Shown here: positions 4,700 to 49,764 of the stretch, piece by piece
Position numbering within the stretch: the first letter of the stretch is position 1
Layout: every line of letters begins with the position of its first letter
From: Deltaproteobacteria bacterium
GTDB lineage: Bacteria > SAR324 > NAC60-12
Direction of reading: 5' to 3'
Assembly: GCA_018645085.1 (NCBI GenBank)
Contig: JABGPG010000136.1
Span: 10,603 to 74,602, forward strand
DNA length: 64,000 nt
The notes under the pieces: model-generated
Told to the model about the DNA's origin: nothing
The model's database searches: none
The model's input: the letters and a program-made list of their open reading frames with translations, nothing else
Program-made: the position numbers and the translations under genes

Positions 4700-6214
4700 A
4701 TGTCCAACCCGCTTTATGAAACTCTGTTCGGAAAATACGCCGGACATTCGACCACATTCCTTTATCTGCCTGATGGAAAAACGATCAGCCATGATTCTTT
4801 TATCCGTATGGCTGGACGTTCTGCAAATGCACTCAGAGAAATGGGACTTGCTGTCGGTGACCGTGTGGCAGTACAGGTTGACAAATGTGCTGAAGCACTT
4901 GCAGTTTATGCGGCTTGTGTTCAATCCGGCCTGGTTTACCTGCCGCTTAATGCCGCCTACACACCGGCTGAAGTCTCATATTTTATTGAAGACAGCGGTG
5001 CAAAACTATTTATCTGTCAAGGCTCCAAAGAAGATGAACTTGTTGCTGTTGCCGAAAAATCTGGGGCACTGCTGGAAACATTGAATGCTGACGGTACAGG
5101 GTCATTTACTGAATTAACTCGGAATAAGGACGATACATTTAAAACCGCAGAACGTGACGGAGAGGATCTTGTGGCGCTGCTCTATACCTCAGGCACAACG
5201 GGACGTTCCAAGGGTGCGATGCTGAGTCAGAACAATTTACTTTCAAATGCTGAGACTCTAGTCGAGCTTTGGCAATTTACGGAGAGAGACGTTCTGTTGC
5301 ATGCTCTACCTATCTTTCACACCCATGGATTATTTGTAGCAACTAATGTGACACTTGCGGCAGGCGGTTCTATGATCTTCATACCGAAATTTGATTTAGA
5401 CTCGATCATCGAAAATCTTCCAAACGCAACCACGATGATGGGCGTCCCAACTTTTTATACAAGGCTTTTGAATGATTCACGCTTCAACAAAGATCTAACT
5501 CAGCACATGCGGCTTTTCGTCTCTGGAAGCGCTCCGTTGTTGGCCGAAACGCATGTTCAATTTGAAGCACGGACAGGCCACCGAATTCTTGAGCGTTACG
5601 GAATGACTGAAACAAACATGAATACCTCAAATCCATATGACGGTGAACGCCGTGCCGGAACGGTTGGTTTTCCGCTGCCGGGAATTGAAATTAAGATTAC
5701 TGACTCGAAAACCGGTGAGGCACTAGCAGATGGTGAAATTGGTGAGATTGAAGTACGAGGACCAAATGTATTCAGCGGTTATTGGCAAATGCCGGAAAAA
5801 ACCGCGGAAGAACTTCGTAAGGATGGTTTCTTTATCACTGGTGATCTAGGTACGATTGACAGCGACGGTTACCTCCACATTTCCGGACGCAACAAAGACG
5901 TGATCATTTCCGGCGGATATAATATCTACCCCAAAGAAATTGAAATGTTACTCGATGAGCAACCCGGTATTATGGAAAGTGCGGTGATAGGTTTAGCACA
6001 TCCGGATTTGGGAGAAGCAGTTGCCGGTATTTTGGTGGCTGAAAAAGGTGAGACGCCGGATCTTGACGAGTTAGCGAAAGCAATCAGCGCATCTCTTGCG
6101 AAGTACAAACAACCCCGAAAACTACTAGTCATCCCTGAACTTCCGAGAAATACTATGGCTAAAGTACAGAAAAATATCTTAAGGCAAGAGTATAAAGATG
6201 TATTCAAGCAGTGA
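4700..6214 (+). CDS. matB: Malonyl-CoA synthetase (AMP-forming acyl-CoA ligase, MatB type)
   Basis: 504 aa, near-colinear with rhizobial MatB, including LYTSGTTGRSKGAML, HALPIFHTHGLFVATNVTL, ERYGMTETNMNTSNPYDG, GDLG...DGY and ISGGYNIYPKEIE motifs. Confidence 0.8.
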   Translation: MSNPLYETLFGKYAGHSTTFLYLPDGKTISHDSFIRMAGRSANALREMGLAVGDRVAVQVDKCAEALAVYAACVQSGLVYLPLNAAYTPAEVSYFIEDSGAKLFICQGSKEDELVAVAEKSGALLETLNADGTGSFTELTRNKDDTFKTAERDGEDLVALLYTSGTTGRSKGAMLSQNNLLSNAETLVELWQFTERDVLLHALPIFHTHGLFVATNVTLAAGGSMIFIPKFDLDSIIENLPNATTMMGVPTFYTRLLNDSRFNKDLTQHMRLFVSGSAPLLAETHVQFEARTGHRILERYGMTETNMNTSNPYDGERRAGTVGFPLPGIEIKITDSKTGEALADGEIGEIEVRGPNVFSGYWQMPEKTAEELRKDGFFITGDLGTIDSDGYLHISGRNKDVIISGGYNIYPKEIEMLLDEQPGIMESAVIGLAHPDLGEAVAGILVAEKGETPDLDELAKAISASLAKYKQPRKLLVIPELPRNTMAKVQKNILRQEYKDVFKQ

Positions 6215-7100: not shown

Positions 7101-8360
7101 TTAGTTAATAGTCCTTGTTAAAGCAGCTTTAAATACTGGATTATTACTGTCCATCTTCAGGGCGGTTTCGTAGTGTTTTCTTGCTTGCGAAATTTCCCCA
7201 GCTGCTTCAAAAGCTAAACCAAGGTTGTGCTCATCCTCTGCTGTACGTTCGTTTAAAGCTAGCAGAAAAGCAACAGCCTCCTGGTAGGCATTCCCCCTGA
7301 TCAAATTAACCGCAACACTGTTACCATCCTGTACAAGTAATTCTGCCCTTTCTTGATAAGGACTGATTTGTTTGACGTATTGTCGTGCAACTTGTCGTCC
7401 GAGTCTGATTTTCAGCTCCAGTGTAGTTTGCGGAACCTTTGCATTATTTCTCAGGTTAAATCCTCTGGCAAAATATTCAGTTGGGTTTGTAAAGGATAAT
7501 CCTGCACGGTCAATTATTGAAAGAAGTGACTCAGAAGAATCTTCATCAGACTGATAATTATTTATAATTGAGTCCTTTATCTTTAGCGGTAAATGCGAAG
7601 TTACGACTGAACCACCCCATTTCCGGACAAAGTAAGTTCGAAAACTTTGTGAAGGAACTACTTCACTGCCGTCATTTTTTCGGAGCAGTGAAAATTCAAC
7701 TTCCAGCGCGGCTATTTGCTCCACATAAGGTGTTGCTATCACAAATCCTGTTCCGGATGATTCTGCACCCATTGAAACAACTCCTGCCAGCAAAGATTGT
7801 TCGAGCGTGGCGCCTTTGTTTTTCACATTTGTAAAATATGAAAGACCCTCCTCTGATTCAATAATAATTTCCGCATATTTAACTTTTCCATGTAGGACTG
7901 CAATTTCGGACTGATCTGGAAGTGCTACGCTAAATCCTGCTTCCTTTCCGGTTGTGTTTATCAACTGATATGGTGACTGAAGTGAAAGTTCATGTAGCAA
8001 AGCGGCTCTCAGCAAATCAGCTGTGAGGTGCCCCTGTTCATTTGTTGAATTGAATTCGGAAATGGCTGGTTTTAATAATTTTTCTGTTCCGCTAAAAATT
8101 CGCTTGGATTCGGATGTTGCGTCACTTGGAAATTTGATTTGTCCTGATACAGTTTGAAAATTGCCAACCTCAATGTAGTTTATATTTTCAACAATCTGCA
8201 GCGGTGGACGCTCAATTTGAAAACTGACTTTTGGTGCACAGGCCGTGAATAAAAATGCAGAAAGGCAGAAAAGTAGAAAAACGCTGAGCTTTACTTCAGC
8301 GAAGGCTTTCCGTATTTCGGAAGAGGATACGAAATAAATATTTGAGAAGATAAGTTTCAT
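7101..8360 (-). CDS. Lipoprotein, paralog 1 of a tandem family; C-terminal TPR-like motif
   Basis: Signal peptide with lipobox (LFTAC). The C-terminus (NLGLAFEAAGEISQARKHYETALKMD) is TPR-like. It shares the internal block ISPYQERAELLVQDG with the two upstream paralogs. Confidence 0.6.
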   Translation of the reverse strand: MKLIFSNIYFVSSSEIRKAFAEVKLSVFLLFCLSAFLFTACAPKVSFQIERPPLQIVENINYIEVGNFQTVSGQIKFPSDATSESKRIFSGTEKLLKPAISEFNSTNEQGHLTADLLRAALLHELSLQSPYQLINTTGKEAGFSVALPDQSEIAVLHGKVKYAEIIIESEEGLSYFTNVKNKGATLEQSLLAGVVSMGAESSGTGFVIATPYVEQIAALEVEFSLLRKNDGSEVVPSQSFRTYFVRKWGGSVVTSHLPLKIKDSIINNYQSDEDSSESLLSIIDRAGLSFTNPTEYFARGFNLRNNAKVPQTTLELKIRLGRQVARQYVKQISPYQERAELLVQDGNSVAVNLIRGNAYQEAVAFLLALNERTAEDEHNLGLAFEAAGEISQARKHYETALKMDSNNPVFKAALTRTIN

Positions 8361-8401
8361 TAAATCATTCTTAGAATAATATACATAAAATCGGCAGCAG
8401 A

Positions 8402-9553
8402 CTAACGTGATTCAAGCTGTCGCTGTAGTTGAGGGTGTTCACGCCGAAGTCTTTCAATGCGTCCAAGTCCCTGGGCAAAAAGCAGGTTTTCCGGTTCAGC
8501 CTGCCAGGCCTCTCTGTAAGTCGTCTGGGCAAGTCCAAAATCTCCAATTGCTTCAAAGCAAAGTCCAAGGTTATAAAGATCATTTGGATCAGGATTTTCA
8601 GCAGTTGCCTGCTGCAGTTGAGCTATTGCTAAATCGTAAGCACCGGCTTCAATCAAAATTTTCGCATTTGGGAAGCTGCCCTCAGCAACAGGGTAGCTGA
8701 CAACTTTTTCTGTGACGGCAACTCGACGGACAAATCCGCTCGCAATTGAAAGTGCCATATCCGCAATTATTTGCTCAAAAGAAGGTAGGACATCTGCAGA
8801 GCTTTCAATGCTGTCAGTCATTGAGCTTTTCGATGGGGACAAAACTGAGGTGAAACTGTCAGCAATTTGCTGAAAACTTTCTCCGCTCCTTCCGCCAATC
8901 CGTTGAGAGTAAGTTCTAGTCTCAAAAGTTGTTGCGACCACTTCAGTCGGCAGCAAACGGGTCATCTTAATCTCAAGTCCTAATGTCCCGCTCGTTGATT
9001 TGTAAGGCCACCAAACTACTTGATCAACTGTCAGATTAAGGCCGAGACTGTTTCTGGAACGAGGAGGCCGAAAATATTCCAGACTTTCTTTGCTTAAGTC
9101 AACTCCATCTGTACGTTCAATTTCAAGCCAGAGTTTACCATTGATAACTGCGTCAACATTTTTAGTTTTGTAACCGCGTACTGAAACCAACTGTTGAAGC
9201 GCCTCGTCATTTGCCAGCTCCTCAAATTCATCACTAAAAATAACCTTGAAGTACGGAGTTGCGGTTAATAAATTTATCACCCTTGCTCTTACTGAACGGC
9301 TGATGGATTTTTGCTGTTCCTCATTCAGTAAAACAGGATGAGTTTGCCAGACGCCGTTTCGTTCGGTTTTATATTTCAGCATTATCCGGCCTATCTCAAA
9401 TCCTCCTACTGCTACATTTTTTATTTTCCGCGTATTAATTTCTGCAGGTGAGCGGACAGTAAGTGTCGCTTTAGCACAACCTGAAATTAAAATCACGGAG
9501 ATCAGCAATATCAACAATAAATGATTAAAGATATAGTTATTCAAAAATTTCAT
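8402..9553 (-). CDS. Lipoprotein, paralog 2 of the tandem family; C-terminal TPR-like motif
   Basis: Lipobox LISGC and C-terminal YNLGLCFEAIGDFGLAQTTYREA. Homologous to the flanking paralogs. KNVAVGGFEIG resembles the KxxAVxPF segment of LpoB/CsgG-like lipoproteins (tentative). Confidence 0.6.
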   Translation of the reverse strand: MKFLNNYIFNHLLLILLISVILISGCAKATLTVRSPAEINTRKIKNVAVGGFEIGRIMLKYKTERNGVWQTHPVLLNEEQQKSISRSVRARVINLLTATPYFKVIFSDEFEELANDEALQQLVSVRGYKTKNVDAVINGKLWLEIERTDGVDLSKESLEYFRPPRSRNSLGLNLTVDQVVWWPYKSTSGTLGLEIKMTRLLPTEVVATTFETRTYSQRIGGRSGESFQQIADSFTSVLSPSKSSMTDSIESSADVLPSFEQIIADMALSIASGFVRRVAVTEKVVSYPVAEGSFPNAKILIEAGAYDLAIAQLQQATAENPDPNDLYNLGLCFEAIGDFGLAQTTYREAWQAEPENLLFAQGLGRIERLRREHPQLQRQLESR

Positions 9554-9565
9554 TTTTGTCTTTTT

Positions 9566-10864
9566 CTATTTTTGAGTTTGTCTAGCCAATGTTTTAGTTT
9601 CAGCAAGATAACGCCGGATCCGGCCAACTCCTTGTGCATAAAGTTTTATGCCCGGACTTTTCTCGAGTGCAGTAATGTAAAATCTACGTGCATCCTCGTA
9701 ATCTTCCGGGCTTAAAGCTCCTGCTTCATAAGCCAAACCTAAATTATACCAATCTTGAGATTCTCTTTTTTCAGCCGGAATTGCCTCGATGAGCTTCCGG
9801 ACTTTTTGTGATTTTCCTTCTTTGAGCAAATTCCCTGCTTTTGCTCTACCGCCTTCTGCAACCTCGGCTTCAACCATTTGCTTGTATGGAGAAATTGTGC
9901 GGATGAATGATTCCAAAGTGCGCTTCACTAATTGCTGAATCACCTTCCTTTTTTCTTTGGGAGGGAGATCGTAAATATCCGGAATGGCTAATCCTTTTGG
10001 TCCATAGAAAATTTGTTTTGGATTACTGCGTGAAGCTAAAGCAAGCTGGCGGCTAGGTATTGGGAAAATAGGAATTCTAGTGATACTGAGCAGGCTGCCT
10101 AAAGTCAGAGAAATGAGGTGGCTTTCTTTGATGTTACGGTAGGAATCTTTTTCGATAATACTGCGGCCGAAACTGGCTGAATCTGCACGTATTGCCAGAG
10201 TTTCCCTGCTTAAGCCAATCATGTTAAAACTGAAATTAGCCTGAGCAAAAAGTGAAATATTTTTGTAATCGTAAATCCGCACAACCTGGTTTTTAGGTGG
10301 AATAACGTTATTTAAACCTGCGAGCGAAAATGCGGATGAAAGTACCAGCTCCGCCGCATTACTGGCAAAAGTTCCTCTACGGCAAACATATCCACGCCAT
10401 TTATCTAAAGTAATTGCTTCATTTGTAATTGCTGCTGCTCCAGCTGAGGACAGTCTCCCGCTGATTCCACCTGTGCAGGTGGCAAGGTCAGTAAACTGTC
10501 CGTGGTCCACCTCCCCGCCGCTGATGACTTCTCCCTGAATTATCGCAACAGTTTCCTTTTCTGAATCAAACTGGCTGCCGTCTAAAGTATTCACTACACT
10601 GACTTTGAAACGTCCGAAACGATTGAGTTCATCCGCCAGTTGTTGAAGGACTTGATTTTTAATGCCAAGTTTATCATTTGTTTCATCCACCAGATCTGCG
10701 CGGATAAACACTTTTTTTACGTCACGAGGAATGGTAATTCTGGAAGGCCGCTGCACTTCAAACTGTGAAACATTAAGTCTGGTACAGGCAGAGACAAGTA
10801 TTGAGGCACACAGGCATAATAAAAGAGTAAAAGATTTCTTGGAAGATAATTTTGTTTTTTTCAT
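9566..10864 (-). CDS. Lipoprotein, paralog 3 of the tandem family; C-terminal TPR-like motif
   Basis: Lipobox LVSAC, C-terminal WYNLGLAYEAG...RFYITALEKSP and shared block ISPYKQMVEAEVAEG. There is an 8 bp gap to the upstream DUF2851 gene. Confidence 0.6.
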   Translation of the reverse strand: MKKTKLSSKKSFTLLLCLCASILVSACTRLNVSQFEVQRPSRITIPRDVKKVFIRADLVDETNDKLGIKNQVLQQLADELNRFGRFKVSVVNTLDGSQFDSEKETVAIIQGEVISGGEVDHGQFTDLATCTGGISGRLSSAGAAAITNEAITLDKWRGYVCRRGTFASNAAELVLSSAFSLAGLNNVIPPKNQVVRIYDYKNISLFAQANFSFNMIGLSRETLAIRADSASFGRSIIEKDSYRNIKESHLISLTLGSLLSITRIPIFPIPSRQLALASRSNPKQIFYGPKGLAIPDIYDLPPKEKRKVIQQLVKRTLESFIRTISPYKQMVEAEVAEGGRAKAGNLLKEGKSQKVRKLIEAIPAEKRESQDWYNLGLAYEAGALSPEDYEDARRFYITALEKSPGIKLYAQGVGRIRRYLAETKTLARQTQK

Positions 10865-10872
10865 GTCTGCAT

Positions 10873-12285
10873 TCAGCCTGCTAAAAGTCCGGGTAATTCA
10901 CAGCGTACACAACCTTGATGAAAGTTGCGGCAAAAATCATGTTGAATTTGTATCAAACCCTGCCGATTTCCAAAAGTGTTCAGCTTCAGTTTAGGTGATT
11001 TAGGCAATTCAGAAAACCATAATCGTTTTTCCATGAAACGTGTTTTGCTGTTTGATGCCTCTGCGGGTAAAATCATAAATAAGCGATAAAGCAGTTTTTC
11101 CAGTTCCGGTTCATTTTCGTATCTTGCATAGGCCAGGAAGAATGGTAAAACGGCATTTGCCCAAAGAATTATTTGACGATCCTTGCCTACAAGCTGAGAT
11201 GAGTATGTCTGCTTTGATTTCCCTAAAACAAGATGCTTCTGCCAGACTTCCCAATCCGGAGTTGAAAATAGTTTTTCAGTTTCAGACAGTGCCTGCCGCC
11301 GCAATTCTTTTTCATCTGCAAACTGACTCAGCTTACGGAACACCAGCAACCAGCGTTTGAGCAAACCCTCATTTGCTACACAGTATAAATGATGGAACAT
11401 GCCGAGCAGCCGTCTCTCCGGAGTATTTTGTGGACGGTAAGCTTGTGAAAATTTTTGGGAAACTTGAGGTTGTTCAGGAAGTTCCTGCCAGGCAGTTTTC
11501 CACTGTAGGAATTCATGGCGTACAGACGGATCAGCAATTGTATGTTCTGTGGAAAATAATCCACATGCACCAAACCAGCGTGAAAGAACGAGCGTCCGTG
11601 TTGTCCGCTGAGACTGCCTGAACAAAGGTCGGAGTTCACTAAACTGATATTGTTTTGCAAGTTCTTCAAAAACCTGGGCAAACGGTGAATAACCTAATGA
11701 TTTGAACAACAACTGAAAAAGCAATTCTTCAGAATTCTGTTCATTCCAGCGCTTTAGCAACAGCTGCATTTTCTCCTGGATTCGCTGCTCTGCAGCATGA
11801 CCAATGATTTTTTTCAGCGTTTTCGCACCATGTTCAACCGCCGTCACTCCGCAACGTCCGGGAAGTTCTCCGAAAAATTTTAAGTCCGCCCGGGCTTCCG
11901 TTTCTGAGGTAGATGGTGTTTTGTTGATAACAGAAGCTAATTCCAGCTCCGGAATTTCACAGTTATCCTCACGTTGAATTAACCGTTTTCCACTGTTGTA
12001 AAGAACGACGTGTAAAACCACGGAATTGTAGACCGGATTTTTTTCGTGTTGATGTGCATACCATCCGGAAGAATCGACATGAATTTCCACTGCACCAAAA
12101 AGCGTATGTTCACCAATTTGTAGTCGTGCTTCCTTGAAGTCAGGTCCGCTTCCGGAATTGTGCCAGCCCGCAAACTCAATTTTTACTGCCTTACCGCAAA
12201 CTGTACGTAGCTTTTCCTTTGCAAAATCCTGCTCTGCCCAGATTTGCTGGATTGCCATTTCTGGAATCGAGAGCTTGTTTAACAT
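10873..12285 (-). CDS. DUF2851 family protein
   Basis: 470 aa. The N-terminal block (WAEQDF...GKAVKIEFAGWHNSGSGPDFKEARLQIGEHTLFGAVEIHVDSSGWYAHQH) is the hallmark of DUF2851. It is the first gene of the four-gene minus-strand operon. Confidence 0.6.
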   Translation of the reverse strand: MLNKLSIPEMAIQQIWAEQDFAKEKLRTVCGKAVKIEFAGWHNSGSGPDFKEARLQIGEHTLFGAVEIHVDSSGWYAHQHEKNPVYNSVVLHVVLYNSGKRLIQREDNCEIPELELASVINKTPSTSETEARADLKFFGELPGRCGVTAVEHGAKTLKKIIGHAAEQRIQEKMQLLLKRWNEQNSEELLFQLLFKSLGYSPFAQVFEELAKQYQFSELRPLFRQSQRTTRTLVLSRWFGACGLFSTEHTIADPSVRHEFLQWKTAWQELPEQPQVSQKFSQAYRPQNTPERRLLGMFHHLYCVANEGLLKRWLLVFRKLSQFADEKELRRQALSETEKLFSTPDWEVWQKHLVLGKSKQTYSSQLVGKDRQIILWANAVLPFFLAYARYENEPELEKLLYRLFMILPAEASNSKTRFMEKRLWFSELPKSPKLKLNTFGNRQGLIQIQHDFCRNFHQGCVRCELPGLLAG

Positions 12286-24031: not shown

Positions 24032-24106
24032 TGGGGCGTAGCCAAGTGGTAAGGCATCGGGTTTTGATCCCGTGATTCGCAGGTTCGATCCCTGCCGCCC
24101 CAGCCA
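24032..24106 (+). tRNA. tRNA-Gln (anticodon UUG), encoded CCA end
   Basis: Cloverleaf folded by hand: acceptor stem UGGGGCG/CGCCCCA, D-arm GCC-AAGUGGUAA-GGC, anticodon stem CGGG/CCCG with loop UUUUGAU (U33, UUG, A37), T-arm GCAGG-UUCGAUC-CCUGC, discriminator G, CCA. Confidence 0.8.
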
Positions 24107-24177: not shown

Positions 24178-24990
24178 ATGACTGAAATATCCCATCTCAA
24201 ATATATACAATGGCGTCCGATTGGTGTCTGTGATACAGGTACAGGAAAGGAACGCAAGGCCAAGATGTTTTCCAGATTTGATCTGGCCTGCGTGACTGCT
24301 CCGGAAGTTAAACGAGAAAACTGGCGCGAGCATCCTAAAGTCATGGAACTTATTCAGCGCTATGCACACGATGTGGCCGAGCTTTCAAGTTTAACTAAAG
24401 GCATGCAAGCACCGGAAATTGCTGAAATTAAGCTCGTTGGTGCCGTCCTTGGTCATGATAAAACACCGAACCTGAATCTGGAATCGGCAGACGGTAAAGT
24501 TCAGTTTTTTCAGGTTAGTTTCAAAGATGCAAAAACAAAAAAATCTCCCAAAAAATGGAAAAAATGGCTGAAATGGATTTTAATCTCAATGGTTACATTT
24601 TTAGTGATGATTTTGATATTAATGCTGATAAACCGATTGTCATTGTTATCTTTAAAAAACAATAAGTCGTCTGCTTCAGCCTGCAGTTCTAGCAGACAGA
24701 GTGCTGCATATACTGCAGATTTAGCTGAGATTCGAAAATCTCTGTTGACAGAATTAAATCGTCTTCCGGCATGGTTAACTTTTAAAGAAGCTCGTGTACA
24801 TTGTACAGGAGGTAGAATGGGGGTCAAGCAACACGAACAGCGTTTACTACAGTGTTTGTTGACAGTCCGTAACCGCACCAAAAATATTCCGGTTGCTGCC
24901 AGGCCGAATCTCAATCAAATAGAAGCTTGTGCTGTTACTCTCTGCAAACGAAAACTTCCACATTTAGCTTCATCGTGCAAAAGATTGTAA
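24178..24990 (+). CDS. Hypothetical membrane protein (true start probably at an internal Met)
   Basis: Open frame with one strongly hydrophobic helix (WILISMVTFLVMILILMLI) and basic flanks. No recognisable family. Confidence 0.3.
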   Translation: MTEISHLKYIQWRPIGVCDTGTGKERKAKMFSRFDLACVTAPEVKRENWREHPKVMELIQRYAHDVAELSSLTKGMQAPEIAEIKLVGAVLGHDKTPNLNLESADGKVQFFQVSFKDAKTKKSPKKWKKWLKWILISMVTFLVMILILMLINRLSLLSLKNNKSSASACSSSRQSAAYTADLAEIRKSLLTELNRLPAWLTFKEARVHCTGGRMGVKQHEQRLLQCLLTVRNRTKNIPVAARPNLNQIEACAVTLCKRKLPHLASSCKRL

Positions 24991-25010: not shown

Positions 25011-25039
25011 TTGACAGAAAAACAAACTAAGCATAGAAT
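25011..25039 (+). promoter_or_regulatory. Candidate sigma-70 promoter (TTGACA-17-TAGAAT) for the MaoC/CoA-transferase operon
   Basis: Consensus -35 at 25011-25016, 17 nt spacer, -10 TAGAAT at 25034-25039. Located about 90 nt upstream of the first ATG. Confidence 0.45.
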
Positions 25040-25129
25040 TTTTTTAGCACTTTGTATTAAACTGCAACCAGAAGCTTTCCACAGAGAAAGATAAAAAAGC
25101 AAAAACTACGCTAAGCAGATCCATAAAAA

Positions 25130-25573
25130 ATGATCGATAAAAAACACATAGGTTACAATTTTCCGCCTGTTACTATACCTGTTGAAGAAGGGCGCTTAAA
25201 ATTTTTAGCAAAATCACTTGGAGAAACCAAGGCAATTTATACAGATCCGGATGCAGCAAAAGCAGCAGGATATCCTGGCTTGTTGGCTCCTCCAACCTTC
25301 CCGTTCATGCTGGAAATTGATGCCTTAGATTTGGTGGATTTTATGAGTGTTCTTGGAGAAACGCTGGAAAAATTACTGCACGGTGAAGAAAATTTCAACT
25401 ACTATGCGCCAATTTACGCCGGTGACAGTATAACTGTTCGTAAAAGAATCACCGATATTATTGATAAAAAAGGAGGCGCTTTGCAATTCGTGATTTCAGA
25501 CAATACTTTCACAAATCAGCACGGTAAAATTGTCGCTGAAACGAGAACCAATTATGTTTTCAGGCATCAATAA
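25130..25573 (+). CDS. MaoC-like dehydratase, N-terminal-type hot-dog subunit
   Basis: 147 aa hot-dog fold (PPTFPFMLEIDALD...NYYAPIYAGDSITVRKRI) of the MaoC_dehydrat_N type, which pairs with a catalytic MaoC subunit. Confidence 0.65.
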   Translation: MIDKKHIGYNFPPVTIPVEEGRLKFLAKSLGETKAIYTDPDAAKAAGYPGLLAPPTFPFMLEIDALDLVDFMSVLGETLEKLLHGEENFNYYAPIYAGDSITVRKRITDIIDKKGGALQFVISDNTFTNQHGKIVAETRTNYVFRHQ

Positions 25574-25579
25574 AATATC

Positions 25580-25996
25580 ATGACTCAACCAACATACGAC
25601 TCTTTAAAAGTAGGGGACGAAATTCCCACGCTGACAACTCCTTCAGTTTCCCGGCACACTCTTGCACTTTATTGCGGTGCTTCCGGAGACCATAATCCAA
25701 TTCATGTTGATCTTGATTTCGCAAAAAAATCAGGACTGGATGACGTGATCGCACATGGAATGCTATCCGCGGGTTATCTCGCCCAAATGCTCACTAACTG
25801 GGTTCCTCAATCTGCTCTCAGAAGCTTTAATAACCGTTTCACCGCAATGACTCAAATAGGTGACACTGTGTCCTGCAGCGGAAAAATTGTTGAGAAATTT
25901 GAGAAAGATGATGAAAAATTTGTGCGTCTTGAACTTTACTCAAATACACCGCAGGCACAGACAATCGTCGCTGAAGCAGTGCTTGTCTTAGCATAA
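25580..25996 (+). CDS. MaoC-like (R)-specific enoyl-CoA hydratase/dehydratase catalytic subunit
   Basis: 138 aa with the catalytic hot-dog motif (DHNPIHVDLDFAKKSGLDDVIAHGML). It begins 6 nt after the N-type subunit. Confidence 0.7.
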   Translation: MTQPTYDSLKVGDEIPTLTTPSVSRHTLALYCGASGDHNPIHVDLDFAKKSGLDDVIAHGMLSAGYLAQMLTNWVPQSALRSFNNRFTAMTQIGDTVSCSGKIVEKFEKDDEKFVRLELYSNTPQAQTIVAEAVLVLA

Positions 25997-25997
25997 A

Positions 25998-27194
25998 ATG
26001 TCCGCTCCACTTTCCTCAATAAAAATTCTCGACTTTTCGACTTTGCTGCCGGGTCCTTATGCATCAATGATGCTGGCGGATTTAGGTGCAGAAGTATTAA
26101 GGATAGAATCACCCACACGTCCGGATTTAGTGAGAATGCTGCCGCCACGAGTTAAAGGCGGTTCTGCGACTCATGGGACACTGAATCGTTCAAAACACTC
26201 TCTGGCTTTAAACCTGAAAAAACCTGAGGCAGTTAAAATTGTTCAACAATTGGTTAGCAAATATGATATTGTTTTGGAACAATTCCGACCGGGAGTAATG
26301 AAACGGCTCGGGCTGGATTATGATGAACTCCGCAAACACAATCCTGCACTAATCTTTTGTTCACTAACAGGTTACGGGCAAACAGGACCTTACCGAAACC
26401 GTGCAGGTCACGATCTAAATTATCTCGCCATTTCCGGAGTCAGTAATTATAGTCGCCGAAAAAATGAATCCCCTGTACCGCTGGGAATCCAGGTTGCAGA
26501 TGTCGCTGGTGGTTCATATCATTCTGTAATGGGTATTTTAGCCGCAGTGATACACCGTCAGCAGACTGGAGAAGGACAAGCGCTTGATATAAGTATGTCA
26601 GACGCAATGTTCAGTATGAATATATTCGAAGGCGCAAATTGGCTCGCTGGTGCGCCTGAAGCTCAACCGGAATCGACTTGGCTCAACGGTGGGACGTTTT
26701 ATGATTATTATCAAACCAGGGATGAACGTTGGATTTCAGTGAGCAGTTTAGAACCTCAATTTTTTAGCGCTTTGCTGAATGCAATGGAACTTCCGGAAAC
26801 TTTGCTGCAAACCGCTTTTGATGATGCAGAAGCTCAAACACAGTTAAAGAAGATACTCCAAAAAAGATTTTTGGAACGACCATGGTCTGAATGGGAAACA
26901 GTTTTTGCAGACATTGATGCATGTGTTGAATTGGTGTTGGAGTTTCCAGAGGCAATGGAACATCAGCATTTTAAGGATCGAGAAATGATTACCGAGGTAC
27001 CTGATTCAGATGGAGCACTGCATAAACAAATTGCATCACCATTTAAGTTTTCTACATGCAAAGCAGAGTATCGTCACGTTGGTGCTGAACTTGGTGAACA
27101 AACTGAGATGGTCTTGAAAGATCTAGGCTATACTGAACAACAATTCGAAAAACTAAAAAATGATGGTGTTTGTGCAGACAATAAAACCAGTTAA
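25998..27194 (+). CDS. Family III CoA-transferase (CaiB/BaiF/Frc family)
   Basis: 398 aa. N-terminus IKILDFSTLLPGPYASMMLADLGAEVLRIESP and GYGQTGPYRNRAGHDLNYLAISG are diagnostic of the family. It begins 1 nt after the preceding stop. Confidence 0.8.
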   Translation: MSAPLSSIKILDFSTLLPGPYASMMLADLGAEVLRIESPTRPDLVRMLPPRVKGGSATHGTLNRSKHSLALNLKKPEAVKIVQQLVSKYDIVLEQFRPGVMKRLGLDYDELRKHNPALIFCSLTGYGQTGPYRNRAGHDLNYLAISGVSNYSRRKNESPVPLGIQVADVAGGSYHSVMGILAAVIHRQQTGEGQALDISMSDAMFSMNIFEGANWLAGAPEAQPESTWLNGGTFYDYYQTRDERWISVSSLEPQFFSALLNAMELPETLLQTAFDDAEAQTQLKKILQKRFLERPWSEWETVFADIDACVELVLEFPEAMEHQHFKDREMITEVPDSDGALHKQIASPFKFSTCKAEYRHVGAELGEQTEMVLKDLGYTEQQFEKLKNDGVCADNKTS

Positions 27195-27205
27195 TTGGAG
27201 AATTT

Positions 27206-28756
27206 ATGCCAACTAAGCATGAAATGACTTCAGTTACAGGCAAGCTGAATATACGTTACATTTTTGGGATGAAGCTCCGTAACTTCAGACAAGAAAAAGA
27301 TTATGGCCTGAAGGAACTTGCAGCACTGACAGGATTATCTGCGTCTTATATTAATGAAATTGAAAAAGGTAAAAAATATCCTAAAGCAGAAAAGATAATG
27401 ATGCTGGCAGATGGATTAGGTGTTGCTTATGACGACCTGGTCTCAATCAGTATGACAGGTCGGCTTGGTCAAATCTCAGAATTATTTTTTTCATCATCAG
27501 TATTGGGATCCTTTCCTTTTCAACTTTTTGGAATCACATTTGAAAATGTGATGGAGCTTTTTACGGCATCACCGAAGAAAGCCGCCGCGCTCATCAGTAC
27601 ATTAATGGAGATTTCAAGAGCGTATGACATGAATGTTGAGCAGTTCTTTTTAGCATCTTTACGGGCTTTTCAGGAAATGCACAACAACTACTTTGAGGAG
27701 TATGAAGAGTTGGCAGAAGAGTTTGCACGCAAACAGAAATGGAAACGTTTTCCGCCGCCCACCCGTGAAGAACTGATAGACACCCTCAGTAAGGTTCACG
27801 GAGTTGAAGCGAGAGTTGCGGATTTTTCAAGATATCCTGAACTGTCCGGGCAACGTTTTATTTTTCTACCAGGCAAGCCTCCGCAGTTATTGTTAAACGG
27901 TCAACTCACTCCCTCCCAGCATGTCTATTCAATGGCTTTACAAATCGGCTATTCTGAGTTGAAAATCCGCAAGCGTCTCCGTACTTCTCCCTGGAAAAAA
28001 TTCGATAGTTTCGACCATGTTATGGACAATTTCAGGGCTTCTTATTTTGCAGGTGCTTTGATGATAAATCGTTTTCAGGCAAAGGAAGAAGTTCAGGAAT
28101 TATTTCAGTCAGAAACATGGGATGGTGACGCTATTTTAAAGTTACTCAAACGTCATGAAGTTACTCCGGAAACATTTCTGCACCGTCTCAGTCAGATTCT
28201 TCCCGGACTGTTCAAAATAACGGAGCTGCATTATTTGCGTTTTGAGCATCAGATTGGGAAAAATGATATTCAACTGACCAAGGAATTGAACATGCCTAGA
28301 ACTTTAGTGCCGAGCGGTGTCCGTTTAAATGAGCACTATTGTCGACGTTGGTTACCGGTGTCTTTACTCAAAGATTTGGAAGAAGAACAGACTAAGCAGA
28401 AACCTGAAAAAATAATAATTCGTGCGCAGAGAGCACAGTTTATGGAAAGTGGAGACGAGGTGCTTTTTATTTCCATTGGACGACCATTGCGTTTAAAAAC
28501 AAAAATGAACCGCTGTGTCTCGCTTGGATTGAGGGTTGATAAAGCTCTGAAAGGAAAAGTTAAATTTTTAAATGATCCAAAAATCCCTGTAATGGAAGTT
28601 AATCAAACCTGTGAGCGCTGTCCCCTCGATGAGAGTCAGTGTTCAGTCAGGACTGCTCCGCACAATGTATACACAAGGGAAAAGAAAGAAGAACTATTAA
28701 ATCAAAGACTGGGAAATCTTGTCACCGATTATCGTGAAAAAAATCTTAAAATTTAA
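27206..28756 (+). CDS. ScfR/RamB/PrpR-like regulator (XRE HTH + ImmA-like/DUF955 + DUF2083 architecture)
   Basis: 516 aa. N-terminal HTH_XRE (LKELAALTGLSASYINEIEKGKKYP) and a long C-terminal domain of the size and organisation of short-chain fatty acyl-CoA regulators. Last gene of the acyl-CoA operon. Confidence 0.55.
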   Translation: MPTKHEMTSVTGKLNIRYIFGMKLRNFRQEKDYGLKELAALTGLSASYINEIEKGKKYPKAEKIMMLADGLGVAYDDLVSISMTGRLGQISELFFSSSVLGSFPFQLFGITFENVMELFTASPKKAAALISTLMEISRAYDMNVEQFFLASLRAFQEMHNNYFEEYEELAEEFARKQKWKRFPPPTREELIDTLSKVHGVEARVADFSRYPELSGQRFIFLPGKPPQLLLNGQLTPSQHVYSMALQIGYSELKIRKRLRTSPWKKFDSFDHVMDNFRASYFAGALMINRFQAKEEVQELFQSETWDGDAILKLLKRHEVTPETFLHRLSQILPGLFKITELHYLRFEHQIGKNDIQLTKELNMPRTLVPSGVRLNEHYCRRWLPVSLLKDLEEEQTKQKPEKIIIRAQRAQFMESGDEVLFISIGRPLRLKTKMNRCVSLGLRVDKALKGKVKFLNDPKIPVMEVNQTCERCPLDESQCSVRTAPHNVYTREKKEELLNQRLGNLVTDYREKNLKI

Positions 28757-28760
28757 AATA

Positions 28761-29510
28761 CTAAAGCGGAAAAAAGTAATTAAGATAGATCGTGTGTAAT
28801 TGACTTTGCTTCAAAAAAGGATTAGAAGCAGAATCAGAGAGGAAAGCTAACTGTTGGCCCAGCGAAAAACGATAATATATTAATAAATTGGAAGTGACGA
28901 AATAGGACACTCCGGTTTCTATAGCAAGAGCGATTTCATCTTCATAAGCATCATTACTGTCAGTTCCCGCAAAACGGGTTTTAGTAAACTGCAGCCCTGT
29001 ACCATAGTGCAAGTATAAGTCACGGCTGATTTTCGGGTATTGTATGTACCAGAAATTATTTTGGATTACCTCAAGTTTTTCTCCGGATTCTGCTAGATAA
29101 CTAAAAGATTCCGAGTGTTCAACAATCGAAATTTGCCTTTCATATTCTACTACCTGCTCATCCCAAAAATATCCCAAATTAAAGCCGATTCCGTTTGCAG
29201 TACCGTCTGAATCCGAAATACTGACTGTATCTGCTACTTGAAGCTTCACCCTACGGAATCCTACGCCAAAATAGAATCCGATTCCTTGAGCAGAAGTTCC
29301 GGAGACAAAAAAATCGGGTTCCTGAGTTGCAGTCCGTGCCTCTAAACTACGCTCTTCCATTTCACTTTGCTCAAGAGGAAGCTGTTCCTGTGCGTGAATT
29401 TCTACTGCAAAAAAAATTAAACAGCATAAAATCAACATGAACAGGACAGACTGGTGAATTGCAGTCTTCCTCAAGTTTTTTAAAGTAGATGGGCAACTAT
29501 TGTTTTTCAT
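28761..29510 (-). CDS. Putative outer-membrane beta-barrel protein
   Basis: Signal peptide (…FFAVEIHA/QEQ), alternating amphipathic beta-strand pattern, aromatic-rich C-terminus. Immediately downstream of lptD. Confidence 0.4.
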   Translation of the reverse strand: MKNNSCPSTLKNLRKTAIHQSVLFMLILCCLIFFAVEIHAQEQLPLEQSEMEERSLEARTATQEPDFFVSGTSAQGIGFYFGVGFRRVKLQVADTVSISDSDGTANGIGFNLGYFWDEQVVEYERQISIVEHSESFSYLAESGEKLEVIQNNFWYIQYPKISRDLYLHYGTGLQFTKTRFAGTDSNDAYEDEIALAIETGVSYFVTSNLLIYYRFSLGQQLAFLSDSASNPFLKQSQLHTIYLNYFFPL

Positions 29511-29514
29511 CTAA

Positions 29515-32169
29515 TCAATCCAAATCCGGTAAAATTTGTTCTGGAAGCGAAATGCCGCCCAGGTTAATGTAGGCATAGAGTGTACGGTCAATATATTCCT
29601 GTTCACGTCCGCTGTTTGAAACGGTTGTGCCGACATTTTCTGTGAGCGCAAGACGGATGTTCCAGCAGTCAGGCCGGTAATCCAGAGTGAGAGCGCTCGA
29701 ACTTAGACGCCGCCGAAAGGTATAACTGTCTGCATCTAAATTGACTGTTCCGGAAAATCCGAAAGCCAGTTTGTCACTTGCTTCAAAGCTGTTGCTGAAA
29801 CCAAATGTGTTAGCTGCCGCAACATCATTACCAAAAGGTGTTTGATAAGCTTCTTCGTTATTACGGAAATTCACCGATGCTTTGTTATGCGTACTCAAGC
29901 CTACACTTACTGCTGCAGAATATTCTACAACGCGTTTCTGCTGATGGTGATAACGATTGAACAGGTTTATTGAAAATGCGCTGCTGGGTGTAAAAATCAA
30001 GTTAGTACGCAAAGGTAACAAAGGTTGATCTGACTCAGTCTCATCACCTTTAACAGCAGGTCCGACAGGTTGAAAAAACGGATCTTTTTTGAAAAAATCA
30101 TAATGCTGGACAAAGTTCAAACTGGCGAGATTCCGGCTTTTTCCTTCACGTGTTTGACCACCGACCTGACTATTCAGCAGAGGAATTACTCCTTTTTCGA
30201 CATATCCGAGGATGGTGTTTTTTTGCTGAGTAGTTAATTTGTCACCAGTTAACCGAGCTAACTGCTCTGTAAATAATTTCTCAGAAGCAAATTCCTGTCC
30301 CAGAATCAGTGCTAATTTACGAATCAGCACAGGATCCAACTGATTCCTTCTCATTCTGTCCAATGAAAGAGATGTTAATTTAACACTTCGTTCAAAGAAA
30401 CGTCGTTTGACGAGCAGCACATTATCCAAGCGTAATGTCGCCAGTCTACGTGTAGAAACTGTTCCTCCAAAAGGAACTCCGGAAGTGGATGTTTGCCGGA
30501 CATCTTCGATGTAATCATATTGCAGGCGTGGTTTTATCAAGTGCTTGAAACGGCTGTAAATTCCGGAATCTGTCTTAAATGTCCTGGACAAAGTTGTGTT
30601 GATTTCCGCTTTACCGTCCAAAATATTGAAACCGTACGCATCTTCACTTCCAGACACATCCGGATCACGAACTTTGTAACTGGAAATCTTTTTCCCAACA
30701 TTAAAGCTGGCGTTAAAATGTTGGAAAAGCGGAAATTGAAAATTAAGTCTGGGAGTGACGCTTGCACCTTCACCATTGTATCCCTGTACTCTGTAATAGC
30801 GCACAGCAGATCCACTCAAGGAACTGCTCAAAGTTGATTTTCCGGAACGCCATAAAGAGTCACTAAATTGAAATGAAAGCGCTGGTAAATATTGAACTTG
30901 AGTGAGGTCAATTGCTCGGTTTAGGATAGCTAATTCACTGAAGGTACGTGTCTGAGTTGCAGAAAGTGTGATACTGCCTTTTGAAAACTGCCGGTTGATA
31001 TTTGCGGAAATCTGCTGTGCGGTATTAGGGCTTGTACTAACAACCAGTTCGTATTCCTTTTGAAACTGACTGTCACTGTAAACCAGCGCAGAGGCAATCA
31101 ATCGGCTTTGTACGTCTAACTGTTGATTGTGATTAAATTCAAATTTAAAACGTTGCGGATTTAAATCTGCAACTGCTAGCTCTTCGGAACTTAAACTTCC
31201 AGATTCATTTTCAGGATCACGCGGGTCACGTTCAAAAAATTGCTGGTATTTTATTTCACCCCGCATTCCCTCTTTCCAGGCATATTGATAATCCAAACGG
31301 AATCCTGGTCCGCGTCGTTCCACCCAGTCATATGTGAGTGTTAAATCTTGCTCCGGATCAATATTCCAAAAATACGGAATTCCTAAGCGGTAACCAAGGT
31401 CAAATTTTCTCAGACTACTGCGGACTATGAGATATTCCGGAGGAAGGAATCCTGATTGACGACGTTTTACAGTCGGCCAGGCAAGATACGGAAAGTAAAA
31501 AACAGGAACCCCACCGACTCTTAAAGTAGAACTGCTTGATGATGAGAAATTTTGTGAATAATAATTAACTTCACTACCAGTTATCTGCCATGCTGGAGAT
31601 TTCGGATTACAAGTTGTGAATGTACATGTTTTGGCAGTATATTCGTTTTTACCTACTCTGCGGACTTCTTTCGCGGTCATGTATGCTTTGCTTGAAGCAT
31701 CATAAAAAATGGTATTGATGAAAATTCCGGTGCCGTCTTTTATGTTTATTTCCAACTCATCCATCACTGCGATAATTTCCCCTTCTGTTACTCTGACATA
31801 ACCTTTTGCAGTTAATGTGTTTTTTTCGGGATGGTAAAGTATTTCCGTACTTTCCACAGAAATTCCTTCCCATTCAACCTTTGCATTGCGGTAAAGATAT
31901 GTTCCTGCTTCCGGATTATGTAAGTACGATTGTGTCTGAATCGAAAGTTGCGGAATATCCAATCCATCTTGCGCGGAGACTTGAACAGGTATAAAAACAA
32001 GTAAGGCCAGTATCCAAAAAGTAAGACTTGTAAAAGAACTCAAAATGCGAAAAAAGCGCCTCGAGTCTGTGTTGGAACCGGAATGTTGCTGGATTGAATA
32101 TTTTTTAGTCAATGAACGCAAGGGAATCATAATTGGCGGGAAGCGACAAAACATAAAACTGGCAGGCAA
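29515..32169 (-). CDS. lptD: LPS-assembly outer membrane protein LptD (OstA); annotated N-terminus probably too long
   Basis: 884 aa with the OstA N-terminal jellyroll (LTAKGYVRVTEGEIIAVMDELEINIKDGTG) and a large C-terminal beta-barrel. The signal peptide (LALLVFIPVQVSA/QD) starts about 40 codons after the first ATG. Confidence 0.85.
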   Translation of the reverse strand: MPASFMFCRFPPIMIPLRSLTKKYSIQQHSGSNTDSRRFFRILSSFTSLTFWILALLVFIPVQVSAQDGLDIPQLSIQTQSYLHNPEAGTYLYRNAKVEWEGISVESTEILYHPEKNTLTAKGYVRVTEGEIIAVMDELEINIKDGTGIFINTIFYDASSKAYMTAKEVRRVGKNEYTAKTCTFTTCNPKSPAWQITGSEVNYYSQNFSSSSSSTLRVGGVPVFYFPYLAWPTVKRRQSGFLPPEYLIVRSSLRKFDLGYRLGIPYFWNIDPEQDLTLTYDWVERRGPGFRLDYQYAWKEGMRGEIKYQQFFERDPRDPENESGSLSSEELAVADLNPQRFKFEFNHNQQLDVQSRLIASALVYSDSQFQKEYELVVSTSPNTAQQISANINRQFSKGSITLSATQTRTFSELAILNRAIDLTQVQYLPALSFQFSDSLWRSGKSTLSSSLSGSAVRYYRVQGYNGEGASVTPRLNFQFPLFQHFNASFNVGKKISSYKVRDPDVSGSEDAYGFNILDGKAEINTTLSRTFKTDSGIYSRFKHLIKPRLQYDYIEDVRQTSTSGVPFGGTVSTRRLATLRLDNVLLVKRRFFERSVKLTSLSLDRMRRNQLDPVLIRKLALILGQEFASEKLFTEQLARLTGDKLTTQQKNTILGYVEKGVIPLLNSQVGGQTREGKSRNLASLNFVQHYDFFKKDPFFQPVGPAVKGDETESDQPLLPLRTNLIFTPSSAFSINLFNRYHHQQKRVVEYSAAVSVGLSTHNKASVNFRNNEEAYQTPFGNDVAAANTFGFSNSFEASDKLAFGFSGTVNLDADSYTFRRRLSSSALTLDYRPDCWNIRLALTENVGTTVSNSGREQEYIDRTLYAYINLGGISLPEQILPDLD

Positions 32170-33063: not shown

Positions 33064-33112
33064 TTGTTTTACAGGATTTTAAAGCATTTATAGTCACCTG
33101 CTAAACATATTA

Positions 33113-33904
33113 TTCAAACTTGTGCCGTTTCCAGCGGTATGGACTGTCGACGATTACTCCCGGTTGAGTTGCTGTTTCAAGTACTGCCAGACAATCACGG
33201 AAAATTTGTTTTTGCTGGGGTCGGTTAAATGCTTCTCCCATGGCGTGACCAAAAGGATATTTCAAGTGATATGTGCGTGGAGGTTTTACGGACTCAGTTA
33301 CTTTGCGGACAATTGAAATTCCTACAGTAGAAATTCCTTGTCGTTCGATTTCACGTTGGATCAGACCGACCGTCTGATTGCAGAGGCCTCAGGCCGGTAC
33401 CAACAGAGCAATGTCAACTTGCTGCTGTTTAATTTCTTGGGCCGCTTCAACAGCACTTTCCTGAATTAATGTTGTCAGGTGAGGTTCTTCGATGTGTCCC
33501 ATAAAGCTGTAATGATAAGGGCTTGACGCTCCTACTAGACCTTCCGCCTGAAGCTCACGTAAGACCTCAAAAGGCAGGATCAAATTTGGATCACGGTCTG
33601 CATCACGGTGGTCATAATATTTGTGGGAAATGGTTAAATCTTCCGCAGAAACGTCATGGGGGATTCTCCGGAATGAACTATCGCCCTGCGGATCGTTTAA
33701 ATCAAAGCCTTCTTCCGTTTTCAAGAGAATACCGCCGGTTGTAAAGAGCGCTATTTTACAGGCAGAGATGGGTTTATTGAGTTTTGTCCAGGGTACACGA
33801 TCAAAAAGCACTGCTTCGTAACTTTGTGCCCAAAAATTTTTCACTATGGGAATCCGAAATAACATAACCCATAATTTGTCCAGTAGAGTTTCTTTATCCA
33901 TCAA
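33113..33904 (-). CDS. PrdB/GrdB-family (D-proline/glycine/betaine reductase protein B-like) selenoprotein, stand-alone; UGA at 33389-33391 is read as selenocysteine (UGSC motif)
   Basis: The listed ORF 33389..33904 ends in TGA. Reading through gives 92 further sense codons to a TAA at 33110-33112. The junction ...ALLVPA-U-GSCNQTVGLIQREIERQGISTVGISIV... parallels ...TSTUGTCTRCGATMVKEIERTGIPVV... of reductase B selenoproteins. Upstream, LILPFEVLRELQAEGLVG parallels MPLDVLRELEKEGVIG. Confidence 0.75.
33360..33378 (-). promoter_or_regulatory. SECIS stem-loop for the PrdB/GrdB-like selenoprotein
   Basis: On the mRNA, AUCAGAC-GGUCG-GUCUGAU forms a perfect 7 bp stem with a 5 nt G-rich loop. It begins 10 nt after the UGA, the canonical bacterial SECIS position. 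Confidence 0.65.
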
Positions 33905-49756: not shown

Positions 49757-49764
49757 TTGAAATT

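Follow-up and report, generated by a model that had tools for sequence, protein, structure and literature searches.

A split MaoC hydratase pair, a racemase-type family III protein, and a PrpR/RamB-family regulator in one operon of a SAR324 bacterium: A probable accessory module for the beta-oxidation of branched acyl-CoA esters

The DNA considered here is a stretch of 64,000 nucleotides (nt) from contig JABGPG010000136.1, hereafter the window, which derives from a member of SAR324 (Candidatus Lambdaproteobacteria) and holds, between positions 25011 and 28756, an operon of closely spaced genes that follows a strong promoter. Four open reading frames (ORFs), all on the plus strand and separated by 6, 1, and 11 nt, encode in turn a MaoC_N-type protein (maoN, 25130–25573, 147 amino acids [aa]), a MaoC protein (maoC, 25580–25996, 138 aa), a protein of the family III coenzyme A (CoA)-transferase fold (25998–27194, 398 aa), and a regulator of the ScfR/IsaR (PrpR/RamB) family (27206–28756, 516 aa). 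The sigma-70-type promoter on the same strand (25011–25039) is evident by direct reading: TTGACA (25011–25016) and TAGAAT (25034–25039) are spaced by 17 nt and score 11/12, the top sigma-70 match within the 5.7 kb between 23900 and 29600. Both hexamers are recognizable upstream of maoN orthologues in most SAR324 relatives, including those without the regulator or the family III gene. This layout is just as the first-pass annotation, a reading of the letters alone, had described it. The regulator gene follows its upstream neighbor across the 11-nt gap, carries a GGAG ribosome-binding site, and would be co-transcribed with the other three. A terminator scan inside and after the operon returned nothing convincing. 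The same order is seen again in 30 related SAR324 contigs, and chance is far from accounting for the gene set. Among genome contigs, the nearest are SAR324 metagenome-assembled genomes (MAGs), with up to 93% protein identity, and metagenome contigs reach 98–100%.

The first two genes encode what appears to be a hydratase of the heterodimer type, consisting of a noncatalytic HadA-like subunit and a catalytic MaoC subunit. The maoN product matches Pfam PF13452 (FAS1_DH_region/MaoC_N; E 8.7e-39, 133 bits) and the maoC product PF01575 (MaoC_dehydratas; E 3.2e-23, 82.1 bits vs. a cut-off of 27). The hydratase-2 motif GDxNPxH, which supplies the catalytic Asp and His, is intact in MaoC as SGDHNPIH (residues 35–42, with Asp37 and His42 aligned to Asp36 and His41 of HadB) and absent from the 147-aa MaoC_N protein. 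The best matches of the latter in the PDB are HadA/HadC and the N-terminal region of ChsH1/ChsH2, and matches to PF22622 (MFE-2_hydrat-2_N) and to ChsH1/2 structures are weak but present. Scores against the NCBIfam models of HadA (54.3 bits vs. a cut-off of 180, for maoN) and HadB (77.8 vs. 203, for maoC) lie far below these equivalog thresholds, so the pair is not orthologous to the mycobacterial dehydratase of type II fatty acid synthesis (FAS-II).

Since maoN and maoC share a reading frame, with only a TAA stop and two codons between them, the first-pass annotation had asked whether a sequencing error at 25573–25580 might have cut one gene in two. There is no frameshift at this point, and relatives share the split. 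It is kept in all relatives examined (more than 60 related contigs), with spacings of 9–62 nt, a 4-nt overlap in locus L014, and, in L026 from Nanhaiella, two genes that form a pair of their own; conserved throughout with gaps of differing length, it is not a sequencing artefact, which rules out a single frameshifted gene and bears out the genuine split hydratase that had been proposed. As a separate observation, the MaoC_N gene of one SAR324 MAG (L006, 9136–9569) aligns in two frames (residues 1–107 and 105–146), which suggests a frameshift pseudogene or an assembly error; this only possible frameshift seen lies inside maoN.

The 398-aa protein belongs to Pfam PF02515 (CoA_transf_3; E 2.4e-97, 326.8 bits vs. 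a cut-off of 23.3; residues 5–369 over profile positions 1–366). Its best relatives of solved structure are MCR (E 2.7e-58, 200.8 bits) and Far (E 4.7e-57, 196.7 bits), both from Mycobacterium tuberculosis, followed by SUGCT at 182.4 bits together with formyl-CoA transferases. In MCR, catalysis relies on Asp156 and on a His126/Glu241 pair whose Glu241 comes from the second subunit, with Met188 stabilizing the enolate (PMC8142540, PMC10967716) and Asn152 hydrogen-bonding Asp156 (PMC10967716, Table 3). The equivalents in the 398-aa protein are His138 (in AGHDLNY, where it is followed by Asp139), Asp168 (VADVAGG), Met200 (ISMSD), and Glu252 (SLEPQF). Asp168 and Met200 have no discriminating power, their equivalents also occurring in many transferases. 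The two remaining positions do discriminate: position 126 of MCR is Tyr in Escherichia coli CaiB, Frc, and YfdE and in human SUGCT (its sequence verified against PDB 9br6), and position 241 is Gly in CaiB, Gln in Frc, and Asn in both YfdE and SUGCT. In a comparison of 80 sequences, neither His nor Glu is ever found without the other, and every homologue of at least 40% identity has them; most matches at about 30% identity carry Tyr/Phe with Asn/Thr/Ser.

In a neighbor-joining tree that included one characterized racemase and four characterized transferases, all His/Glu sequences including MCR form one bipartition against SUGCT, YfdE, Frc, and CaiB (bootstrap 80/100). The NCBIfam transferase models are all missed, with scores three- to fourfold under their cut-offs (bits obtained/required: SucGlut 187/750, mesaconate 175/700, Frc 173/504, YfdE-type 162/522, CaiB 115/413). 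On these sequence criteria the 398-aa protein is most likely an alpha-methylacyl-CoA racemase rather than a CoA-transferase. The earlier label of a CaiB/BaiF-type CoA-transferase is therefore set aside, given the His/Glu pair in place of Tyr and Asn/Gln/Gly, the grouping with MCR, and the missed cut-offs. That label had come with the proviso that the protein should not fall among formyl-CoA or carnitine transferases, and it indeed groups with neither Frc nor CaiB, but it does not group with the Ict/Mct-type transferases either. In the databases the homologues are variously called "CoA transferase," "carnitine dehydratase," or "alpha-methylacyl-CoA racemase," with "CaiB/BaiF CoA transferase" the commonest; these names were not used as evidence.

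The gene neighborhoods of homologues point to fatty acid catabolism for both enzymes. Racemase homologues of about 50–57% identity from marine Gammaproteobacteria (Oleispira, Colwellia, Motiliproteus, Amphritea, and others) stand at the end of a cluster in which a minus-strand AraC gene faces genes for a crotonase, a thiolase, an acyl-CoA dehydrogenase (ACAD), and a short-chain dehydrogenase/reductase (SDR); of 42 loci, about 13–15 have at least some of these genes in common. The L026 locus of Nanhaiella encodes an acyl-CoA ligase, then the homologue of the racemase, a thiolase of the Ltp/SCPx type (NCBIfam PRK08256, 645 bits vs. a cut-off of 436), MaoC_N, MaoC, and an SDR. At L014, an SDR–MaoC_N–MaoC operon whose hydratase subunits are 81% and 76% identical to those of the window adjoins a racemase homologue. 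More distant relatives, recovered by a metagenome scan with a MaoC_N alignment, extend the pattern: outside SAR324, MaoC_N proteins of 50–55% identity are encoded in the order AraC (minus strand), then SCPx-type thiolase, MaoC_N, MaoC, SDR, ACAD, family III protein, ABC ATPase, and acyl-CoA ligase. The family III protein of these operons is only about 31% identical to the 398-aa protein, yet it carries GHDLNY and (L/I)EPQF, so that two distinct racemase-type subfamilies recur beside the MaoC pair in complete beta-oxidation operons. A literature search found no paper on such a racemase, MaoC, and SCPx cluster.

The gammaproteobacterial version of the cluster deserves a remark of its own. In Oleispira (L027, 4784–11203), AraC on the minus strand is followed by crotonase, thiolase, ACAD, an HSD10-like SDR, and a racemase-type family III protein, and the same order is conserved in L018, L025, L028, L053, and others. 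The labels "CaiB/BaiF CoA-transferase" and "carnitine dehydratase" on its last gene, judged by sequence, suggest systematic misannotation.

Apart from the operon, the 64-kb window has a single acyl-CoA gene, for an AMP-binding ligase (4700–6214), and there is no lyase or isocitrate lyase (ICL). The first-pass annotation had remarked that the lyase or dehydrogenase needed for a known pathway was lacking. Core beta-oxidation genes are reported in all SAR324 genomes (PMC9031357), and the lack would be explained by an accessory pair of enzymes that draws on genes encoded elsewhere. The likeness which that annotation saw to systems of the itaconate/mesaconate/methylsuccinate type does not survive the placement of the homologues in fatty acid beta-oxidation clusters and the transferase models missed; nor does the 64-kb window hold a lyase, ACAD, SDR, or thiolase by which an itaconate/mesaconate-type route might be assembled.

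The 516-aa regulator runs from an XRE helix-turn-helix (HTH) domain through a DUF955/M78-like and a GAF-like domain to a C-terminal cysteine region. Pfam detects HTH_3 and Peptidase_M78, the M78/DUF955 match being weak; the NCBIfam RamB model scores 50.6 bits (E 1.1e-13) against a cut-off of 700; and PF09856, the C-terminal domain of ScfRs, is undetected here and found in only 3 of 21 relatives. Sequence searches of the PDB, made by phmmer/hmmsearch with the single sequence and with a 21-sequence profile, returned HTH domains only and did not detect PrpR. Structure comparison proved more telling. An AlphaFold2 model built from 21 homologues (predicted local distance difference test [pLDDT] score 80.5) has as its top five Foldseek matches in the PDB the PrpR chains of M. 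tuberculosis (6cyy/6cz6/6cyj; E about 2e-11, target template-modeling [TM] score 0.63, about 355 columns). Four cysteines are invariant in the 21 homologues, Cys379 and Cys469-X2-Cys472-X6-Cys479. The [4Fe-4S] ligands of PrpR, a protein that binds CoA or short acyl-CoAs, are Cys363 and a C-X2-C-X4-C motif (PMC6765138), and the arrangement of one distal Cys plus a C-terminal triad is alike in the two proteins, with X6 instead of X4 here; Cys379, Cys469, Cys472, and Cys479 thus constitute a putative [4Fe-4S] site. The earlier assignment to ScfR/RamB-like regulators is accordingly upheld at the level of fold and architecture, for a divergent class.

The relatives of the regulator indicate which class this is. 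Homologues of 42–54% identity, from other phyla and a groundwater Lambdaproteobacterium, are divergently paired with ICL in four independent loci, some of which add malate synthase (MS) or PrpD, and such divergent pairing is the classic RamB arrangement (PMC10370305). The window's protein is a member of a deep-branching, divergent, ICL-linked class of the PrpR/RamB family. The 64-kb window holds no acyl-CoA assimilation gene of this sort (glyoxylate shunt, methylcitrate cycle, and the like), and the regulator is linked there to acyl-CoA enzymes of another kind.

Each of the four ICL/MS-regulator intergenic regions contains one exact palindrome, AAGCGAAAATTCGCT (L084, 7858–7872; L086, 7865–7879; L087, 7824–7838; L090, 5218–5232), with extra TTCGC half-sites nearby and no second exact copy of its 12-nt core within any of the four loci. 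This recurrence makes AAGCGAAAATTCGCT a candidate operator of the regulator class; it differs from the ScfR-type box, which we take to be TTTGCAAA. In the window the palindrome is not enriched (6 matches at up to 3 mismatches vs. 9.7 expected), 872 kb of related SAR324 loci lack any exact copy of its core, and the sole site there with one mismatch to the core lies at the far end of L009. The intergenic region upstream of maoN contains no inverted repeat beyond 6-nt palindromes. A GTTTGT…ACAAAC repeat around the −35 hexamer of some relatives was considered as a sign of autoregulation and rejected, being degenerate in the window and present in similar form in lineages without the regulator. As judged from these sequences, the regulator probably does not autoregulate the maoN promoter. 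The HTH residues hardly vary within the family, so the SAR324 regulator would be expected to recognize a AAGCGAAAATTCGCT-like site elsewhere in the genome.

How firmly the four genes belong together can be gauged from their variation across SAR324, where the slot between ccmB/tRNA-Gln and the 249-aa protein/lptD is syntenic. The loci compared are L001–L013, L031, and L088–L168, in the part equivalent to window positions 25998–28756, and 60 contigs have a readable slot; these are not independent genomes, and the counts are descriptive only. The predicted racemase and an intact regulator are both present in 30 of the 60, the racemase and an internally deleted regulator remnant in 8, the racemase only in 12, remnants only in 2, and neither gene in the remaining 8. 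The internal regulator deletion is shared by members of one sub-lineage (L008, L118, L123, L127, L130, L131, L133, and L136). In L107, 86% identical to the window at the nucleotide level, a clean 2.44-kb deletion removes the equivalent of approximately 26088 to 28526. Racemase and regulator have been lost repeatedly, since deletions turn up in lineages whose MaoC_N identity is about 92%, 82%, and 66%. The MaoC pair and the membrane protein gene upstream of it are kept wherever a contig covers them.

With moderate confidence, we read the four genes as an accessory operon that serves this SAR324 bacterium in the beta-oxidation of acyl-CoA esters that are 2-methyl-branched or bulky in some other way. 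The family III protein would act as an epimerase, in which Asp168 and the His138/Glu252′ pair interconvert (2R)- and (2S)-2-methylacyl-CoA through an enolate, making both epimers usable by stereospecific acyl-CoA dehydrogenases whose genes lie elsewhere in the genome. The resulting 2-enoyl-CoA would then be hydrated by the MaoC_N–MaoC heterodimer, an (R)-specific enzyme of the hydratase-2 type with Asp37 and His42 in its small subunit, and the dehydrogenase, thiolase, and acyl-CoA ligase steps would be supplied by other loci. A sterol, an isoprenoid acid, and an anteiso or methyl-branched acid are all possible substrates. The regulator, presumably co-transcribed, is likely to have a binding site for CoA or a short acyl-CoA close to a [4Fe-4S] cluster. 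Since its nearest relatives control ICL and MS loci, it most likely couples the acetyl- and propionyl-CoA from this catabolism to C2/C3 assimilation genes elsewhere, instead of regulating the promoter of its own operon. Gene structure, domain content, conserved catalytic residues, tree placement, and co-occurrence in genomes were observed directly, and the enzyme activities, the substrate class, the heterodimer, co-transcription, and the ligand and targets of the regulator are inferences.

Several observations weigh against this interpretation. The 398-aa protein is only 36% identical to MCR, its Kimura distance to SUGCT (1.35) nearly equals that to MCR (1.33), and the position of MCR Asn152 is occupied by Ile (motif GIQVAD), as it is by Ile or Val in most members of a subfamily of about 393 aa, with other residues in a few; to our knowledge, this racemase-like subfamily includes no characterized enzyme. 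ACAD, SDR, thiolase, and crotonase genes are all missing from the 64-kb window, so that completion of the pathway is an assumption. Outside SAR324, most racemase homologues have no adjacent MaoC pair. The palindrome AAGCGAAAATTCGCT is absent upstream of maoN, no site in the window has fewer than two mismatches to its 12-nt core, and neither the maoN upstream region, the window, nor the 872 kb of SAR324 loci yielded a target for the regulator. Finally, racemase and regulator have been repeatedly deleted in SAR324 populations in which maoN–maoC persist; the hydratase must therefore be able to function on its own too, with no racemase beside it, and the four genes do not form an obligate unit.

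The slot states are also the main argument for the most serious rival, in which the genes are neighbors in a flexible slot and not a functional unit: the core would be the membrane protein and the MaoC pair, the latter with a role of its own such as (R)-3-hydroxyacyl-CoA supply or general enoyl-CoA hydration, and the racemase and RamB-like regulator would have landed independently and be in the course of being lost. The clean deletion in L107, the affinity of the regulator's relatives for ICL together with the missing operator here, and the lack of a MaoC neighbor beside most racemase homologues elsewhere all suit it. Yet chance adjacency sits poorly with MaoC pairs that recur beside racemase-signature genes of two subfamilies in unrelated lineages (L014, L026, L169, L170, L172, and L173), and gaps of just 1 and 11 nt, downstream of one strong promoter, favor co-transcription; we regard this rival as unlikely, if well short of negligible. 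A quite improbable account, close to that of the first-pass annotation, is that a true CoA-transferase activates a dicarboxylate of the itaconate/mesaconate/methylsuccinate type, the MaoC pair hydrates the enoyl-CoA, and a lyase is encoded elsewhere. Its attractions are these: the Pfam family is CoA_transf_3, the weak NCBIfam matches are all to transferases (including succinyl-CoA:mesaconate CoA-transferase at 175 bits), the catalytic Asp common to transferases is present, and MaoC-type hydratases do act on itaconyl- and mesaconyl-CoA. They are outweighed by scores far under every transferase cut-off, by His/Glu where CaiB, Frc, YfdE, and SUGCT have Tyr/Asn-type residues, by the tree, by the beta-oxidation clusters in which the homologues lie, and by a 64-kb window in which no lyase, succinyl-CoA-related, or dicarboxylate transport gene is found nearby. 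Least probable of all, and in our estimation very unlikely, is a biosynthetic role for the MaoC pair as a HadAB-like (3R)-hydroxyacyl-acyl carrier protein (ACP) dehydratase in fatty acid elongation; HadA/HadC and HadB are the best NCBIfam and PDB matches of the two subunits, but both fall far below the equivalog cut-offs, no ACP, ketoacyl-ACP synthase (KAS), or reductase gene is adjacent, and the relatives are embedded among ACAD, thiolase, SDR, and acyl-CoA ligase genes.

The surroundings of the operon contain landmarks and some curiosities. As the first-pass annotation had noted, a tRNA-Gln (UUG; plus strand, 24032–24106, by ARAGORN), the upstream landmark of the syntenic slot, and a hypothetical membrane protein (24178–24990, plus strand) precede the operon. 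The latter, a single-pass protein of 270 aa encoded between the tRNA and the promoter, has six invariant cysteines in its C-terminal domain, no Pfam or NCBIfam match, and only 43 cluster representatives among 1.84 billion proteins; a single-sequence AlphaFold2 model (pLDDT 55) was too poor for a fold search. Where the SAR324 contigs examined include the upstream flank, its gene, which is probably transcribed separately, stands ahead of maoN, even in those without racemase and regulator. Downstream, a 249-aa protein without a family match (28761–29510, minus strand) is encoded convergently with the regulator, 4 nt from its stop codon, and is conserved together with an 884-aa protein (29515–32169, minus strand) that is presumably LptD; the equivalent SAR324 gene calls have no Pfam match on record.

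Farther along, at 33107–33904 on the minus strand, an in-frame TGA (33389–33391) ends a 171-aa ORF with a GRDB domain, and no further stop interrupts the frame for another 93 codons. Read-through would give …LVPA-U-GLCNQ…, with a UxxC motif; with Cys substituted, the score against the NCBIfam subfamily [quoted passage not shown] is 70.7 bits, above the cut-off of 65.45, and the read-through protein matches PrdB across the TGA (residues 37–258). A 7-bp hairpin starts 11 nt past the TGA, with a folding energy no better than that of shuffled sequence. By these sequence features it is likely a selenoprotein gene; public gene calls for this ORF in SAR324 relatives stop at 170 aa. Elsewhere in the window, three consecutive ORFs of 419, 383, and 432 aa without a Pfam match at E<=1e-5 adjoin a DUF2851 protein (7101–10864 and 10873–12285, both minus strand). 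At 48299–50706 (plus strand), a 485-aa protein with a C-terminal FliN domain only, unusually long for a FliN-type switch component, is followed by a 313-aa FliM-like protein, and GC skew at 48–50 kb is strongly positive (0.27).

In the dark ocean, few bacterial groups are more abundant than SAR324, and a probable racemase/(R)-hydratase kit for methyl-branched acyl-CoAs, which many of its lineages have lost, helps to predict which lipid fractions these bacteria can respire, with acids derived from phytol, anteiso fatty acids, and the side chains of sterols or hopanoids as candidates. The operon refines current understanding and overturns none of it; it is most likely an auxiliary stereochemistry module and not a new dicarboxylate pathway. 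Its novelty is modest and resides in an uncharacterized, apparently widely misannotated racemase-like subfamily and in a divergent, ICL-linked class of putative iron–sulfur acyl-CoA regulators, which adds a deep branch and a testable candidate operator to the PrpR/RamB family. Proteins with the GIQ(V/I)AD motif occur widely, in marine Gammaproteobacteria, Bacillota, Chloroflexota, and SAR324; metabolic reconstructions that count this "CaiB/BaiF CoA transferase" subfamily as CoA-transferases are probably wrong, given its racemase catalytic pair. A bolder proposal, which we offer tentatively and think possible rather than probable, is that the GIQ(V/I)AD proteins of about 393 aa make up an uncharacterized racemase/epimerase subfamily of family III with a substrate perhaps unlike that of MCR or AMACR, and that the 516-aa protein represents an undescribed iron–sulfur acyl-CoA regulator class, marked by C-X2-C-X6-C and the AAGCGAAAATTCGCT operator, that normally governs ICL and was rewired into a lipid-catabolic operon in marine SAR324. 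The subfamily may act, for example, on 2-substituted acyl-CoAs of marine lipid origin, isoprenoid-derived or other, and its SAR324 member may be the dedicated partner of the heterodimeric (R)-hydratase.

Comparison with known systems shows which parts of this module are familiar and which are not. The 398-aa protein has the family III fold in common with MCR (Rv1143) and Far (Rv0855) of M. tuberculosis and with human AMACR; it retains the His126/Glu241, Asp156, and Met188 of MCR, falls in the same neighbor-joining clade, and has homologues in other bacteria that are likewise linked to beta-oxidation genes. It differs in being about 35 residues longer than MCR (398 vs. 360 aa), in the Ile that stands for Asn152, and in belonging to a distinct, uncharacterized subfamily. 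With family III CoA-transferases of the Frc, YfdE, CaiB, SUGCT, and Mct/Ict types it shares the Pfam family, the fold, and the active-site Asp, but these have Tyr/Phe and Asn/Thr/Gln where it has His and Glu, and they lie on the opposite side of the tree bipartition. The regulator resembles PrpR and RamB in its XRE HTH, DUF955/M78-like, and GAF-like domains, its four cysteines, and relatives that are paired with ICL/MS genes as RamB is; it departs from them in a C-X2-C-X6-C rather than C-X2-C-X4-C motif, in a sequence similarity below phmmer/hmmsearch detection, and in the position of its gene, which comes last in a hydratase/racemase operon and not beside its presumed target.

For the hydratase, the mycobacterial HadAB dehydratase offers the same two-gene architecture of a noncatalytic and a catalytic hot-dog subunit and the closest solved structures, but the NCBIfam cut-offs are missed and the relatives' context is CoA-ester catabolism, not FAS-II. 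In contrast to the peroxisomal and sterol-degrading systems taken up next, the SAR324 subunits are separate small proteins without a DUF35 or aldolase partner. A further likeness is one of pathway logic. Peroxisomal beta-oxidation of pristanic and bile acids combines AMACR, the hydratase-2/SDR protein MFE-2, and SCPx thiolase, and actinobacterial sterol side-chain degradation combines Mcr, the ChsH1–ChsH2 MaoC heterodimer, and Ltp; in both, a racemase is followed by an (R)-hydratase, an (R)-specific dehydrogenase, and an SCPx/Ltp thiolase. The coupling of a racemase to an (R)-specific MaoC-type hydratase would be matched in the SAR324 operon, which keeps these two activities only, and the related loci L026 and L173 add the SDR, ACAD, and SCPx/Ltp-type thiolase.

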